Translations under genes and position numbers: made by a program | In this document: positions 3,802 to 62,918 of the stretch, piece by piece | Numbering within the stretch: the first letter of the stretch is position 1 | Layout of the letters: every line of letters starts with the position of its first letter | Notes under the pieces: generated by a model | Database searches by the model: none | The model's input: only the letters and a program-made list of their open reading frames with translations | What the model was told of the DNA's origin: nothing | Virus record (IMG/VR): IMGVR_UViG_3300031992_000022 | Coordinates: 32,001-96,000 of that record | Strand: one strand, 5' to 3' | Length of the DNA stretch: 64,000 nucleotides | DNA from: a virus | Taxonomy: Duplodnaviria; Caudoviricetes

Positions 3802-4579
3802 TTAAGCATGTGTTACACGATCTTTTAATTCACAACGCTTAGCATTATTCCATCTGTCTACCGTACCTGTTAAATACAAATTTATTAATTTAATATTAGA
3901 TATTAACTATTTATTTCTAAATAGTTTAGTATATATCTTTTATTTAGATAACATATAATTTTTTATTTTGACTGAATATCAATACAAATTTTTCCATTAG
4001 CAATATATTGATTATCTATCCACCAATGTTCGTCAAATATTGCTAATTTTTCTAATGCTTGTTCTAATGAATAATCTGTTATAATCAGTAACATTAATTG
4101 ATCATCTATATATTCTAAACGTAAATATGCATAATCAAAATAATCATTAATTTTATTAATTATAATATTTAATATTTCATTTAAACAATTATCATTTAAA
4201 TATTGCTGAATGCTTTTATTAATAATCATGAATTATTATCCTTTAATTATATTAATATACGTTGATATATTTATTAATAAATATATTCTAATTAACTATT
4301 ATAGTTTTCTTAGAAAAAAATATAATACCAAGCTAATTATTAACCTGTAATACGACGAATTCTACCAATTTTAGGTTGATCTTCATCATTATATTCTACA
4401 TCAAAAGTCGTACCTTGTTCAGTTTTCGTTACAATAATTTTACTAATTACAGCTACATCAATATCTTTATGTTCTTCAGCATAATTAATTGCAGCTTTAG
4501 CCATAACATCTGTAATTGTATCTTCTTCATTAAAATCTTTAAATACTACAGTAATATGGTCAATGGTAAATTTTTTCAT
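3802..4579 (-). CDS. nrdD: Stand-alone NrdD C-terminal glycyl-radical subunit, 2 exons (4579-4343, 3876-3802), about 103 aa
   Basis: Joined exons read KIGRIRRITG|YLTGTVDRWNNAKRCELKDRVTHA, the NrdD glycyl-radical motif; GGAGG RBS before ATG 4579. Confidence 0.9.
3877..4342 (-). mobile_element. Group I intron (466 nt) directly after the glycyl-radical Gly codon, with cargo ORF
   Basis: Exon CAGGU pairs with IGS GCUUG; P7 GUAUA/UAUAC; terminal G at 3877. Confidence 0.88.
3963..4229 (-). CDS. Intron-encoded 88-aa hypothetical protein, not a recognisable endonuclease
   Basis: ORF with AAGGA RBS lying between the two P7 strands. Confidence 0.7.
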   Translation of the reverse strand: MIINKSIQQYLNDNCLNEILNIIINKINDYFDYAYLRLEYIDDQLMLLIITDYSLEQALEKLAIFDEHWWIDNQYIANGKICIDIQSK

Positions 4580-4691
4580 ATAAAATATAACCTCCACAAA
4601 AAATTTTTATTTTAATATAAAATAAAAATTAAAATAAACAAAAAATAATAATTAGATAATTAATCTAATCAATATTATAATGTATATTTAA

Positions 4692-60000: not shown

Positions 60001-62918
60001 ATGGAGTTTATCATATATATTAAATAATTTTAATATAATTATTAATCACTTATATTGTATAAATGTATATGACTATATATTTTAATTAATTTTCAATAAA
60101 TAAATCATTTATTTACTAATATTAGTCGTTATATAATATATTTATTTTTAAATAAATATATATTATTGATAAATAAATGTATATACCAATAATTAATCCA
60201 ATTTTTATAGGAGCACTATATAATATACCCCAGCTTTCATAATCACTAGACTTATGTGCAATATGAGTTATTAATCTACTATCTAATCGTATATTACGAT
60301 TCATTTTTACTGAACGAATTACTTCATCAGGCATTTGATTATATAATTCTGCATTTTCTCCGCGTGGGCCTTCACGAACAATAGTTGTAATTTGATCATC
60401 TGGAATTAATTCAATTACAGCCTCATCAGCGAATACTGAAGTGCGAATATTAATATAATCTGGATTTAATATCGTAAATTTTTCCCATCTGAAATTTTAT
60501 TAAAATCTATATTAAATCTTAATAAATTTATACGTAATAGATTCAGCTTAATTCTTACATATATCTTATTCCATTTATCAAAAAAATTATATATATTTAT
60601 TGAATTATCTCTTAAAATATATAATATTTTAAAATAAATATTATTATATATTATATAATTTCTTATTTTACTCTAATACGTATGGGCGTTAACAGTACAC
60701 CTCTATGGTATAAAATATATCTAAAATCTTTTACTAATTTTAAACTATTTATAACTTTACTTTTATCTAAATATTTTCTCATTATATTTAAAGAACCATT
60801 CATATCTGCATTTATATAATTTACTTTAAATTTAATAAAAGTTTTATTAAATATATATTTGCCGCGGTTCGGCCGACTCCCACTAAATTTATACTTCTTA
60901 TTTTCATCATATACATCTTTTTTTAATTTTACTTTTCCATATATAGGTATATAATCATTTTTTATAAAATTTGCTTTACTTGTATAACTCTCTTCTTGTA
61001 TTACTAATTCTATATTATTTAATTCACTTCTATATCTTAAATTTTCTTTTATTCTATAAAATGGTATATTTACAAAATTTTGATTATTTCTTTTTCCTAT
61101 ATTTATATTTTGTTTTATATTTTCATTATAACCTAATATTATTGTATCTATTCTGTTCATTAAACAATGCGAAGCTAGTTCGCTTAGACCTTTGGTCTTA
61201 GAACAATAATTTATTATATATTTACATGTTTTATTTATTATTTCATTTATTCTATTATTTCTCTTTTTAGTTATATTATACATTTTCTTAGTATAATAAG
61301 GAGCTTTACTATCTTTAGCAGCTAGTTGCTGTAATTTACTTATTTGTTTATTATAGAATTGATTTATTGATTTTAACTTTTTTCCATCTAATATAAAAGA
61401 TTTAAATTTATTTTTATCATTTTCTTTATAACTAACACAAGTACATAAATTATTTATACCTAAATCTATAGATAACAAATTATTATTTTTCTTTTTTAAA
61501 TTTACTCTTTTCTTTATTTCATAAACATATTGAATTTCAAAATAATTTCCTTTATGTTTAGGTATAATCCATATTTGTTTTATATTTTTATCTTTTAATA
61601 TATTAGGTATTTGTATTTTAATTCTTTCATGCGATTGGACTATAGAACCATCATATAAAATCATTCCTCCTTTAAGGAATTCTTTACTCATAGGTATTGT
61701 CCAATATAAATTATCATTTAGATTATGTATATGCTTCATACCTTCAGCATCACATATTTTAAAATATCCTTCTTTATCTAAATATTTAGGCATATTAATT
61801 TTATTTTTAATTTTTCCTTGCTTTTTCATTTTTAGTAAACTAAAAAAAGATTTAAAGTTTTGATCTACTATTTTTAAAATTTGTTGTGAACAACCAGATT
61901 GTAAAAGTTTATAATTTTCATCATTTTTTAATCTTTTATCTAAATTAATATAATTTAAATATTTTTTATTATTAAAATATTCTTGTCTAATAATATATAA
62001 AGCTTGATTATATAAATTTTTACTAATATGAGTGAGTTCTTTAAATAGATTATAAATATCTAAATTTTTTTTAGTAACTTGTTGTTTAACAATACCATAG
62101 AATTTATTTTTATTATTCATATTTTTATTTTTCCTTATAAATTAATATTAAATAATAAATAAGATAATAAAAATATGAATAATATTTAAAATAGATTTTA
62201 ATATCTATTAAGCTTATATAATGATATAAGCATAGATTATATCTTTATAAAAAATTATAAAAGATATTTCAATAAAAAATTATTTACTAAGAGAATAATC
62301 GTTAGATTAAATTATATATTAAATTATATATAATTTTAATTATGGATTTTAATATAATAATTATATTTCCATAAATAATTAAATTATAGCAACACTAATT
62401 GCTTCTTGTTCATTTAAGGTACCAAATATAAAAACATCTCCAATTTTCCAATATTCATGTCCTATACCTAATAACAAATTAATAATATCTAATTTATCAA
62501 AAGCTAAATAATCAAAAAATTTTTTAATATTTATATCAGGACAATCATTATTAAATTCTGAAACTGGATATTCTGTATGCAAATCAATAGCTGTAGCAAT
62601 AATAGGCTCTGTTCTATAAAAATGTCTACACCATTCATTTCTTTCACGCCGATCACGCGGTAATAGCATATTAACTGGTTGAAATAACGGATGATAAAAT
62701 GTAGGATTAGATAGCTTAACATTTAAAGTATTTAATCCATTGGCAAAAAAATTAGCTGCAGCTGTTCGTTTCATTTTACGCTGAATATGCCCAGGTAAAT
62801 CTTGTTTATCTACTAAAGCTGATTTCATAAACCCGCTATTGGAAGTTCTTCTATTCAATGATACATTTTGTAAATTATTAAAATAATGATTTAAATCATT
62901 AATATTAATTGAATTCAT
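57023..62918 (-). CDS. Portal protein, 4 exons (62918-62398, 60488-60227, 60007-59816, 57838-57023), about 596 aa
   Basis: EWCRHFYRTEPIIATAIDLH..HEYWKIGDVF..EAI|WEKFTILNPDY..SWG|TPLMMRCFKALIYKDKLR..DDDP|..YHYGVQMDYVG..KIYKPIA; exons sum to 1791 nt. Confidence 0.85.
57839..59815 (-). mobile_element. TnpB-carrying group I intron portal-I3 (IStron-like, no tnpA), about 1977 nt
   Basis: Exon GAUCCU / IGS GGGAUU; P7 GAUUA/UAAUC; tail similar to 39730-39885; 3' site could lie 3 nt further. Confidence 0.82.
58050..59525 (-). CDS. tnpB: RNA-guided endonuclease TnpB (frame open upstream of the track start; probable ATT/ATA start)
   Basis: Close paralog of 39885..41354, including the N-terminal FYLTVKQQVSKYKYKQLY; SIDLG, QEESFTSK, INADMN. 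Confidence 0.9.
   Translation of the reverse strand: MINRNLKKKNTNDKKEKFYLTVKQQVSKYKYKQLYILFKKLCKYSKTIYNRSLYLINQYFIHTGKYLGYSNLYYNIKNDINYKLCEAQIACNILHIVDESFQSFFEVKQKGYKVNTPKYLDKNDYFILPTNKIHINKNNEWIIPLSYQMLKEYNLAPRSKDRFRIKIPTILKDKKIKYIQVVPKYKGKIFEIHYTYEIEINKNIQENNNYLSIDLGIKNLMTCISYNHNSKKEINSFILNGKELKSINQGYNRIISKLQKKNTNKKLRYTKKMYNILKKRNNKINYYIHKTCKKLIDYCLPNNIKTIILGWNNDFQRNSNLGKKNNQHFTSMPFRKLKDNLEYRCKINNINLILQEESFTSKASFLDNDYILSYKKDEKLGYVLRTTDDKVELKKQQFTGKRIKRGLYKSNNGILINADMNSALNILKKYLLNKEYEKIKQLNKYKVVDRRISYKDLINSQDIHNLYEDISILYSRGVLIAPRRIRVRESI
60008..60226 (-). other. Group I intron portal-I2 (219 nt; terminal base A)
   Basis: Exon GGGGU / IGS GCUCC; P7 GACUA/UAGUC; the in-frame junction WG|TP requires a terminal A. 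Confidence 0.8.
60489..62397 (-). mobile_element. TnpB-carrying group I intron portal-I1 (IStron-like, no tnpA), 1909 nt
   Basis: Exon AGCAAU / IGS GUUGCU; P7 GAUUA/UAAUC; ends TTTCAG. Confidence 0.85.
60663..62120 (-). CDS. tnpB: RNA-guided endonuclease TnpB (divergent third copy)
   Basis: SKNLYNQ, SIDLGINN, QEESYTSK, INADMNGSLNI. Confidence 0.92.
   Translation of the reverse strand: MNNKNKFYGIVKQQVTKKNLDIYNLFKELTHISKNLYNQALYIIRQEYFNNKKYLNYINLDKRLKNDENYKLLQSGCSQQILKIVDQNFKSFFSLLKMKKQGKIKNKINMPKYLDKEGYFKICDAEGMKHIHNLNDNLYWTIPMSKEFLKGGMILYDGSIVQSHERIKIQIPNILKDKNIKQIWIIPKHKGNYFEIQYVYEIKKRVNLKKKNNNLLSIDLGINNLCTCVSYKENDKNKFKSFILDGKKLKSINQFYNKQISKLQQLAAKDSKAPYYTKKMYNITKKRNNRINEIINKTCKYIINYCSKTKGLSELASHCLMNRIDTIILGYNENIKQNINIGKRNNQNFVNIPFYRIKENLRYRSELNNIELVIQEESYTSKANFIKNDYIPIYGKVKLKKDVYDENKKYKFSGSRPNRGKYIFNKTFIKFKVNYINADMNGSLNIMRKYLDKSKVINSLKLVKDFRYILYHRGVLLTPIRIRVK

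Follow-up and report, generated by a model that had tools for sequence, protein, structure and literature searches.

Eight minus-strand genes in a 64-kb stretch of phage DNA (bases 32001–96000 of the 158,834-bp IMG/VR virus record IMGVR_UViG_3300031992_000022; hereafter the window) are broken up by 23 interruptions spanning positions 3802–62918. We conclude that these interruptions are very probably group I introns, members of a family of small AT-rich elements that has colonised all eight genes, with the designation 'group I' resting on motifs and covariation rather than on a covariance-model match or a self-splicing assay. Nine of them lie in the major capsid protein (MCP) gene, six in nrdD (encoding anaerobic ribonucleotide reductase), three in the portal gene, and one each in the genes for a capsid decoration protein, a 449-amino-acid (aa) protein of the virion module, a separate glycyl-radical subunit of NrdD, an HD-domain protein and a dimeric dUTPase-like protein. 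They range from 153 to 1977 nucleotides (nt) and total 13,048 nt, which is 20% of the window and corresponds to a density of 0.36 introns per kb. An earlier note on this DNA had counted 23 introns in eight genes within 64 kb, and all 23 interruptions could be rebuilt.

The interruptions were directly visible as gaps left by the calling of open reading frames (ORFs), with the pieces flanking each gap matching successive parts of one Pfam or PHROG profile. For nrdD we used the exon list of the earlier note, the remaining junctions were derived from the sequence, and all genes were then spliced by coordinates. At each of the 23 junctions the spliced frame was open and collinear with uninterrupted homologues from Bacillus phage G, an Eggerthella phage or metagenomes, which bears out the in-frame restoration claimed earlier; the three junctions that lack a phage G counterpart (in the glycyl-radical, 449-aa and HD-domain genes) were checked against intron-less metagenomic proteins. 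The unspliced frames of all the interrupted genes ran into stops, and four of the exons are micro-exons of only 23, 24, 29 and 40 nt. The final base of the upstream exon was U in 23 of 23 cases, and the final base of the intron was G in 21 of 23 (including 6 of 6 introns defined by RNA), the same count as before, with the exceptions being one portal intron (por2) and one capsid intron (mcp9).

The most heavily interrupted gene is that for the MCP (35003..38522), in which only 840 of 3,520 nt are coding, distributed over ten exons: 38522–38355, 38201–38179, 37905–37831, 37628–37553, 37356–37328, 36892–36680, 35864–35825, 35641–35532, 35337–35281 and 35054 (or 35051)–35003. Pieces of this gene matched positions 37–91, 162–233 and 244–284 of phrog_2522, and the spliced product of 279 aa was collinear over nine junctions with phage G gp27, to which 219 of 279 residues were identical. 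Because the exons were 64–95% identical to the phage G MCP, we take them to be under selection.

Assembled RNA provided direct evidence that some of these introns (mcp1–mcp9, numbered in the order of transcription) are removed. For positions 34000–42000, which hold 11 of the 23 introns, we compared the window with RNA runs X4, X5 and X6 (2 samples) and DNA run X3, out of 24 runs and leaving aside source runs X1 and X2; the runs were used as assembled contigs, not reads, from which splicing efficiency is not readable. Exact exon joints at the predicted bases were listed for at least 6 of the 11 introns, with 0 in the DNA run. In all three RNA runs we found the joints 38201 to 38355 (mcp1), 37904 to 38178 (mcp2, with a 1-nt ambiguity), 37628 to 37831 (mcp3), 37356 to 37553 (mcp4) and 36889 to 37325 (mcp5, with a 3-nt ambiguity, within which the reading that places the intron after a U and ends it with a G joins 37328 to 36892), and in X4 and X6 we found the joint of the decoration-gene intron (39052 to 39267), with a shorter side of 230–245 nt. 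RNA contigs carrying the mcp1–5 joints had a depth of 16–319, and the exon pieces of the joined contigs were identical to the letters of the window. One RNA contig of 1096 nt contained exons 2–5 spliced together (24, 74, 76 and 32 letters) onto exon 6 and then continued for 680 nt into mcp6, which indicates either that this intron is retained, in part at least, or that its RNA is abundant. The alignment of two RNA contigs broke off at 36678, overrunning the predicted 5′ splice site of mcp6 by 2 nt, which would fit the first two bases of MCP exon 7. Removal of six introns at the RNA level is thus a direct observation, and removal of the other 17 is inferred. Four of the listed joints fell outside all intron models, namely 35289 to 36237 (X4 and X5), 39341 to 39499 (X4, X5 and DNA run X3), 39530 to 41745 (X6 and X3) and 40512 to 41865 (X4, X6 and X3); their shorter sides were only 21–24 letters and three of them also occurred in DNA, and we presume them to be cross-matches between AT-rich sequences.

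The landmarks of a group I core and their covariation were likewise observed directly. The earlier note had proposed that in each intron the exon-final U pairs with a G-starting internal guide sequence. All 23 exons do end in U, and 20 of the 23 introns form a P1 helix of at least 5 contiguous pairs, counted from the U.G to their own exon with a G-initiated guide within 45 nt, compared with only 10.7% of 506 mismatched exon/intron pairs; for mcp5, no such pairing was found. The P7 helix claimed for each intron was recovered as a complementary pair by script in 22 of 23 and by eye in the last, mcp8. The script found GACUA/UAGUC in 11 introns, GUAUA/UAUAC in 5 (6 with mcp8), GAUUA/UAAUC in 3, and GAUCA/UGAUC, GCAUA/UAUGC and GGCUA/UAGUC in 1 each, with only the three inner pairs counting as covariation because the search pattern itself set the outer G-C and A-U pairs. 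P4 pairings were identified by eye in four covarying forms (UUCUG/CAGAA, UUGCU/AGCAA, UUGGG/CCCAA and ACGGU/ACCGU), and mcp1 is the one intron for which P3, P6 and P8 were sketched by eye. Folding four introns with RNAalifold returned the P7 helix alone, with one compensatory pair, and a MAFFT alignment of 12 ORF-less introns was poor (40% mean column identity). Three introns (mcp1, mcp2 and mcp6) carry UCAGAGACUA, and mcp1 and mcp6 also carry AAGAUAUAGUCC, which we take to match the textbook R and S elements of group I introns. A strict scan for R followed by S yielded 23 matches on the 158.8-kb contig, compared with 3.55 on average and never more than 8 in 100 Markov shuffles, and 17 of the 18 matches in the window fell inside modelled introns; a loose scan of the contig performed at chance level (110 matches, compared with 106 in shuffles). 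Further R/S cores lay outside the window, at contig positions 3108–3147 (+), 109513–109583 (−), 116349–116389 (+) and 103284–103338 (−), and since some 3–4 cores elsewhere in the contig are plausible, the genome-wide count of introns is expected to exceed 23.

Several results weigh against the assignment to group I or against removal of the introns. Rfam model RF00028, which does match in control genomes and had been named earlier as a check, matched nowhere at any threshold tried, whether in the window (gathering score and E ≤ 1), in positions 6100–9200 (E ≤ 10) or across the complete contig. The smallest introns seem to lack peripheral helices, por2 ends in A and mcp9 probably lacks a terminal G, and mcp5 is removed in RNA despite having no U.G P1 in the 45-nt search. 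Among the joints listed, none belongs to mcp6, mcp7, mcp8, mcp9 or the intron of the 449-aa gene (p432); the junction-spanning sequences that the earlier note proposed to look for were obtained, in RNA only, for 6 of the 11 introns; one RNA contig, moreover, keeps the 5′ 680 nt of mcp6. The phage depth in X3 was only ~3–5X, and a DNA variant without mcp1–5 may exist.

Such results fit a reading in which the elements derive from group I introns but, having lost P2, P8 and P9 and in two cases the omega-G, no longer splice themselves, depending instead on a phage or host protein (such as the LAGLIDADG protein of the first nrdD intron acting as a maturase) or on an RNA in trans, a possibility that we consider serious although the odds are against it. 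Intron lengths down to 153–196 nt, an intron G+C content of 9–21%, the lack of an RF00028 match, the two introns without a terminal G, and the removal of mcp5 in RNA without a recognisable U.G P1 are all points in its favour. Yet nearly all copies preserve the landmarks by which both splice sites are positioned, as a working core needs, and small bacterial group I introns are known to self-splice (that of Azoarcus is ~205 nt). We infer self-catalysis. It is far less probable, indeed very improbable, that the genes are decaying or permanently split, their pieces being separate polypeptides or pseudogenes and the insertions unremoved debris. Gene callers do see fragments only, and in many metagenomic homologues of the glycyl-radical gene the recorded product is 79 aa long and ends at the intron, but exons of 23, 24, 29 and 40 nt are too short for proteins of their own, every junction phase restores one frame, the MCP exons retain their identity to phage G, and the removal of six insertions in RNA contradicts this reading for the MCP and decoration genes.

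We give still less credence to an assembly artefact or some other process, such as a chimeric contig, stop-codon recoding, group II introns or translational bypassing, even though the contig is a metagenome assembly in which no Rfam intron family matches. Two DNA runs contain all sampled words of positions 34800–39200, and X3 contigs cross intron-exon borders unbroken (for example, 37701–38223), both of which speak against a chimera. Recoding is at odds with ORFs of up to 1476 aa that stay open under translation table 11. Group II introns would be expected to start with GUGYG, but the inserts of 153–1977 nt do not, and the Rfam group II families gave no match; and because the sequence is removed from the RNA, the process is not a ribosomal one, as bypassing would be.

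If the interruptions are group I introns, their excision from the mRNA would take the standard course of two transesterifications, with the 5′ splice site set by the U.G between the last exon base and the internal guide in P1, the core built around P4 and a G-C-closed P7, and exon ligation relying on the terminal G that 21 of the 23 possess. Splicing would then rebuild NrdD, its glycyl-radical subunit, the HD-domain protein, the dUTPase, the capsid, decoration and 449-aa proteins, and the portal. Since every unspliced frame runs into a stop and four exons measure just 23–40 nt, production of the capsid, portal and nucleotide-metabolism proteins requires splicing. The earlier claim that capsid assembly, DNA packaging and dNTP synthesis all depend on splicing holds at the RNA level for the MCP and the decoration protein only, and is extrapolated to the other genes. 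Spread of the introns would be driven by the nucleases that they carry (LAGLIDADG, HNH, gp28-like and, in three introns, TnpB), with TnpB predicted to cleave alleles that lack the intron by means of a guide that is read across the 3′ splice site, and the ORF-less mini-introns would be passengers or decayed copies.

The nine capsid introns illustrate how compact these elements can be. In mcp1 (38202..38354, 153 nt), P1 has 7 bp, R is UCAGAGACUA, S is AAGAUAUAGUCC and the intron ends in G; by eye, P2, P8 and P9 look absent. A phrase search of the literature returned no paper on the smallest group I intron, and we claim no record for mcp1. The 23-nt micro-exon is followed by mcp2 (37906..38178, 273 nt), with a 6-bp P1, P7 GACUA/UAGUC and a terminal G, and then come mcp3 (37629..37830, 202 nt; P1 of 5 bp, P7 GUAUA/UAUAC, terminal G) and mcp4 (37357..37552, 196 nt; P1 of 7 bp, P7 GCAUA/UAUGC, terminal G). 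After the 29-nt micro-exon stands mcp5 (36893..37327, 435 nt), with P7 GACUA/UAGUC and a terminal G. The longest, mcp6 (35865..36679, 815 nt), again has UCAGAGACUA as R, AAGAUAUAGUCC as S and a terminal G, and its P1 fits, by eye, with one intron pair or one mismatch; it contains an ORF (36063–36563) for a nuclease-like protein of 166 aa that matches phrog_9019 (E 5e-12) and resembles phage G gp28. Beyond the 40-nt micro-exon, mcp7 (35642..35824, 183 nt; P1 of 7 bp, P7 GACUA/UAGUC, terminal G) is spliced at a junction collinear with phage G, as is mcp8 (35338..35531, 194 nt), whose junction reads QV^IPADVP (carets mark junctions) and which has a 7-bp P1 (UUCAAGU/GCUUGAA), P7 GUAUA/UAUAC by eye and a terminal G. 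For mcp9 (35055..35280, 226 nt, or 229 nt if it extends to 35052; P1 of 6 bp, P7 GUAUA/UAUAC), the G-ending site at 35052 loses a Gly that is kept by phage G and by 7 of the 7 relatives whose C termini were compared, and the site that retains this conserved Gly ends in A/C.

The decoration gene (38541..39279; exons 39279–39267 and 39052–38541) encodes a protein collinear with phage G gp26 (MAGG(Y/F)K..FGPTY). Its intron (deco, 39053..39266, 214 nt) begins 13 nt after the start of the gene, has a 6-bp P1 and P7 GUAUA/UAUAC, and ends in G. The ribosome-binding site and start codon of the gene thus lie with a 13-nt coding exon before the intron, and RNA contigs extend at least 270 nt upstream of this ATG (39267–39551). 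In the gene for the 449-aa virion-module protein (39660..42877; exons 42877–41621 and 39722–39660), which had no match in GenBank phages, the intron-less homologues P0019–P0022 read unbroken across the junction (...SDNINP^IN(A/N)AFRELF..MGKR). Its intron, p432 (39723..41620, 1898 nt; P1 AAUCCU/GGGAUU, P7 GAUUA/UAAUC, terminal G), has its ribozyme core within the first ~165 nt, followed by TnpB (39885–41354) and a 3′ tail.

The portal gene (57023..62918) has exons at 62918–62398, 60488–60227, 60007–59816 and 57838–57023, which matched positions 47–175, 176–264, 262–327 and 329–548 of phrog_16240, and the spliced protein of 596 aa was identical to phage G gp14 at 306 of 596 positions, with no gap at 3 of 3 junctions; a search for related loci with a portal exon found no relative. 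Its first intron, por1 (60489..62397, 1909 nt), has P1 AGCAAU/GUUGCU, P7 GAUUA/UAAUC and a terminal G and carries TnpB at 60663–62120. The second, por2 (60008..60226, 219 nt; P1 of 5 bp, P7 GACUA/UAGUC), ends in A, as only the site ...GAUAA^ACUCC keeps WG^TPLMMRCF collinear with phage G. G-ending sites for por2 were rejected, the nearest upstream G leading to stops in all three frames and a downstream G losing TPLM. Both por2 and mcp9 appear to have an ordinary P1 and P7, yet their candidate 3′ splice sites do not follow a G. The third portal intron, por3 (57839..59815, 1977 nt; P1 GAUCCU/GGGAUU... of 8 bp, P7 GAUUA/UAAUC, terminal G), carries TnpB at 58050–59528 and shares blocks of ~87–100% identity with the p432 element.

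Among the genes of nucleotide metabolism, nrdD (5706..11178) has seven exons, at 11178–10471, 9513–9161, 8174–8151, 7936–7819, 7439–7254, 6933–6457 and 6122–5706, whose products matched positions 1–105, 106–148, 158–203, 204–263, 264–414 and 415–534 of PF13597. Spliced NrdD is 760 aa long with no internal stop, and its alignment with the NrdD of an Eggerthella phage showed no gap at 6 of 6 junctions, the 24-nt micro-exon included. Intron nrdD1 (9514..10470, 957 nt; P1 of 6 bp, P7 GACUA/UAGUC, terminal G) contains a LAGLIDADG ORF (9536–10327; PF03161, E 2e-10), and nrdD2 (8175..9160, 986 nt; P7 GACUA/UAGUC, terminal G), with a P1 that by eye comprises 4 bp on the exon side plus one intron pair, contains an HNH/NUMOD4 ORF (8335–8910; PF07463 and PF13392). 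The micro-exon precedes nrdD3 (7937..8150, 214 nt; P1 of 7 bp, P7 GUAUA/UAUAC, terminal G). A paralogue of nrdD2 and nrdD6 (repeat families D7 and D12), nrdD4 (7440..7818, 379 nt) has a 6-bp P1, P7 GACUA/UAGUC and a terminal G. The MG^CRT site holds nrdD5 (6934..7253, 320 nt; P1 of 6 bp, P7 GGCUA/UAGUC with one G.U, terminal G), and removal of nrdD6 (6123..6456, 334 nt; P1 AGUCCU/GGGACU with U.G, P7 GACUA/UAGUC, terminal G) restores SSP^AES. The NrdD of Eggerthella phage EL753P1 has an intein-sized insert of ~350 aa at exactly MG^CRT, the nrdD5 site, which is therefore a conserved position used by two kinds of mobile element.

NrdD stops after its zinc ribbon. The glycyl-radical motif (RRITGY...) belongs to the product (103 aa) of a separate gene that lies 1.1 kb further downstream, beyond an unrelated 304-aa ORF (4692–5606); stand-alone glycyl-radical homologues of 104–105 aa occur in other metagenomes. 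The ORF after nrdD in the Eggerthella phage, considered as a glycyl-radical protein, was rejected as not encoding one. In the window, the glycyl-radical gene (3802..4579; exons 4579–4343 and 3876–3802) yields upon splicing ...RRITG^YLTGTVDRWN..., and the intron-less homologues P0012, P0013 and P0015 (104–105 aa, PF13597) contain RRITGYLTGT unbroken. Its intron, nrdDc (3877..4342, 466 nt), follows an exon-final U, has a 5-bp P1 (GCUUG), P7 GUAUA/UAUAC and a terminal G, and holds an 89-aa ORF (3963–4232) that is placed between R and S and was assigned to no family.

The HD-domain gene (11749..12599; exons 12599–12028 and 11815–11749; PF13487) produces upon splicing a C terminus, ...NNDI^QNDYIPERNFTIGQLTDDERF, that agrees with the intron-less P0024 and P0028 at an equal length of 212, its homologues showing ND(I/L)QNDYVPERNFTIG; the GenBank phage matches of this protein were too distant for judging its C terminus. 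Its intron (11816..12027, 212 nt) has a 6-bp P1 (UGAUAU/GUAUCA), P7 GAUCA/UGAUC and a terminal G. An alternative placement of this intron at 12003–11792 was rejected, as homologues place the junction at 12027–11816. A free-standing HNH endonuclease gene (11186–11665, −) lies outside the introns, between the terminator of the HD-domain gene and the start of nrdD. The dUTPase-like gene (14808..15939; exons 15939–15204 and 14917–14808) matched positions 3–128 and 128–162 of PF08761 and is homologous to phage G gp58; its intron, dut (14918..15203, 286 nt; P1 of 5 bp, P7 GACUA/UAGUC), has its final G at 14918, a site that gives spacing equal to gp58 (with residues counted by eye, not re-aligned). 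Sites not ending in G were rejected for dut, as they leave an 8-residue gap relative to gp58.

The cargo of the introns thus comprises LAGLIDADG (nrdD1), HNH/NUMOD4 (nrdD2), gp28-like (mcp6) and TnpB (p432, por1 and por3) proteins. In 3 of 3 TnpB elements, R and S lie at ~nt 93–165 and TnpB (PF01385 plus PF07282) lies downstream of the core, and the elements are precisely absent from P0019–P0022 (for p432) and from the portal gene of phage G. A fourth TnpB element with the same core stands outside the window, with TnpB at contig positions 107743–108099; Y1 or serine TnpA was not found on the 158.8-kb contig, which is ~32% of the genome. In layout, p432, por1 and por3 resemble IStrons. An IStron has a group I ribozyme at its 5′ end followed by a TnpB of IS200/605/607 type, its 3′ splice site falls at the end of the element so that guide RNA and splicing compete, and copies without TnpA exist (10.1101/2023.11.20.567912). 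The elements described here likewise have a ribozyme core and then TnpB within an element bounded by splice sites; unlike IStrons, they sit in phage virion genes.

Among GenBank phages, Bacillus phage G (497.5 kb) gave the best match for the portal, capsid, decoration and dUTPase genes alike, and we therefore regard the phage as a phage G-like giant. The window would be a portion of a Bacillus phage G relative of the ~500-kb class, with 22% G+C, from the sheep gut. Its G+C content is ~22% throughout, no tRNA genes were found in it, CheckV puts the completeness of the record at ~32%, and sheep and goat gut sequencing runs contain DNA of the phage. The introns are polymorphic among close relatives, as seen from the MCP gene being uninterrupted in 8 of 9 IMG/VR loci with a 63–72% identical capsid exon and from the glycyl-radical gene, many metagenomic copies of which are 79-aa products ending at the intron site and others intact; such presence/absence polymorphism should be expected of mobile elements. 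The ninth MCP locus, L014, has three canonical R/S cores exactly inside its two MCP gaps. A search for one non-canonical core variant identified one other IMG/VR contig, on which a 14-kb stretch contains six cores and TnpB introns that are 79–87% identical to the copies in the window.

Phages of the T-even, SPO1 and Twort type carry three to a handful of group I introns (in T4, td, nrdB and nrdD/sunY; in Twort, orf142). The introns in the window share with these their small size, their presence in nucleotide-metabolism and structural genes (nrdD being targeted here too), the U.G P1, the R/S core, the terminal G and the optional ORFs (HNH, GIY-YIG or LAGLIDADG); the differences are the number, with 23 in 64 kb and up to nine per 840-nt coding sequence, and introns that are shorter, far more AT-rich and escape RF00028. 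Fungal mitochondrial cox1, an essential gene, has many group I introns, short exons and LAGLIDADG ORFs or maturases, but resides in an organelle served by nuclear-encoded splicing factors, whereas here the transcript of a lytic-type phage would have to be spliced within one infection. As a baseline, the three introns of T4 invoked by the earlier note are outdated, since intron-rich phages have been published (PMC7886860, PMC12880540). Zeta crAss-like phages have up to 14 introns plus 3 inteins per 145–192-kb genome, and introns and inteins are dense in core genes of zeta and delta crAss-like phages, including the MCP gene, with one MCP in five fragments (PMC7886860). Jug phages have a mean of 18.5 group I introns of ~206 nt per 360–402-kb genome, lying in terL, nrdD and DNA polymerase, and 37 of 76 predicted introns are supported by metatranscriptome reads (PMC12880540, PMC12363816). 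The crAss-like introns were found through their endonuclease domains, whereas most of the introns here are ORF-less mini-introns in a phage G-like lineage with no recoding. The Jug phages are similar in being huge gut phages with many short group I introns, but have ~0.05 introns per kb genome-wide compared with 0.36 per kb locally here, and their introns were found with subgroup covariance models. Per-gene maxima for both groups may stand in the supplements of those papers.

The kind of element is therefore already known, and what is different here is the density, the nine introns per 840-nt coding sequence, the micro-exons, the RNA-confirmed introns of 153 and 196 nt, the two candidate 3′ ends that are not G, the IStron-type introns in virion genes and the failure of the general Rfam model. 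The local density of 0.36 per kb raises the bound for viruses several-fold over the ~0.05–0.1 per kb of published cases, and the capsid mRNA would need nine splicing events around exons down to 23 nt. In practical terms, the capsid, portal and NrdD genes of such phages are overlooked or cut short by ORF callers. Introns of 153–230 nt that are removed in vivo, micro-exons between two ribozymes and the two candidate non-G ends are substrates for the question of the minimal core. Given the polymorphism and the TnpB introns in virion genes, competition by way of introns between co-infecting phages becomes directly testable. More speculatively, and with the balance tipped against it, a lineage of phage G-like megaphages of the rumen or gut may be overrun by a miniaturised AT-rich class of group I ribozymes as short as 153 nt, invisible to RF00028 and in two cases working without the omega-G. 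The phage may tolerate or exploit them by way of a dedicated splicing helper, and the intron-borne nucleases, RNA-guided TnpB included, may act as weapons against intron-less co-infecting relatives. If true, no natural intron load known outside organelles would be denser, and the phages would offer a natural setting in which to test minimal ribozymes.

A full-length HEARO (IscB omega-type) RNA lies just downstream of the capsid gene (34508–34734, −; 99 bits) without an IscB, the adjacent 162-aa ORF (34039–34527) matching no family, and a second, weak HEARO match (63216–63318, −; 26 bits), upstream of the portal gene, adjoins a 107-aa ORF (62949–63269) that Pfam did not match but that looks like the C-terminal piece of IscB. 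The endolysin coding sequence of Bacillus phage G (19865–21534) is annotated as two joined pieces, and the cultured relative therefore has at least one interrupted gene. The gap at 25579–25992 was considered as an intron and rejected, as it consists of a small plus-strand ORF and a terminator; the ORF (25691–25975, ~95 aa) has a G+C content above that of its surroundings and falls below the 100-aa calling cut-off, and it adjoins a strong terminator hairpin at ~25965–25995. Finally, a complete Amidase_3 gene (21738–22343, −) is followed by a homing-endonuclease gene on the opposite strand (20513–21709, +; phrog_12131, DUF7487) and then by a second copy of the amidase C terminus (20299–20460, −; 54 aa, repeat D14, 75% identical), an arrangement suggestive of an endonuclease insertion that supplied a gene end of its own.

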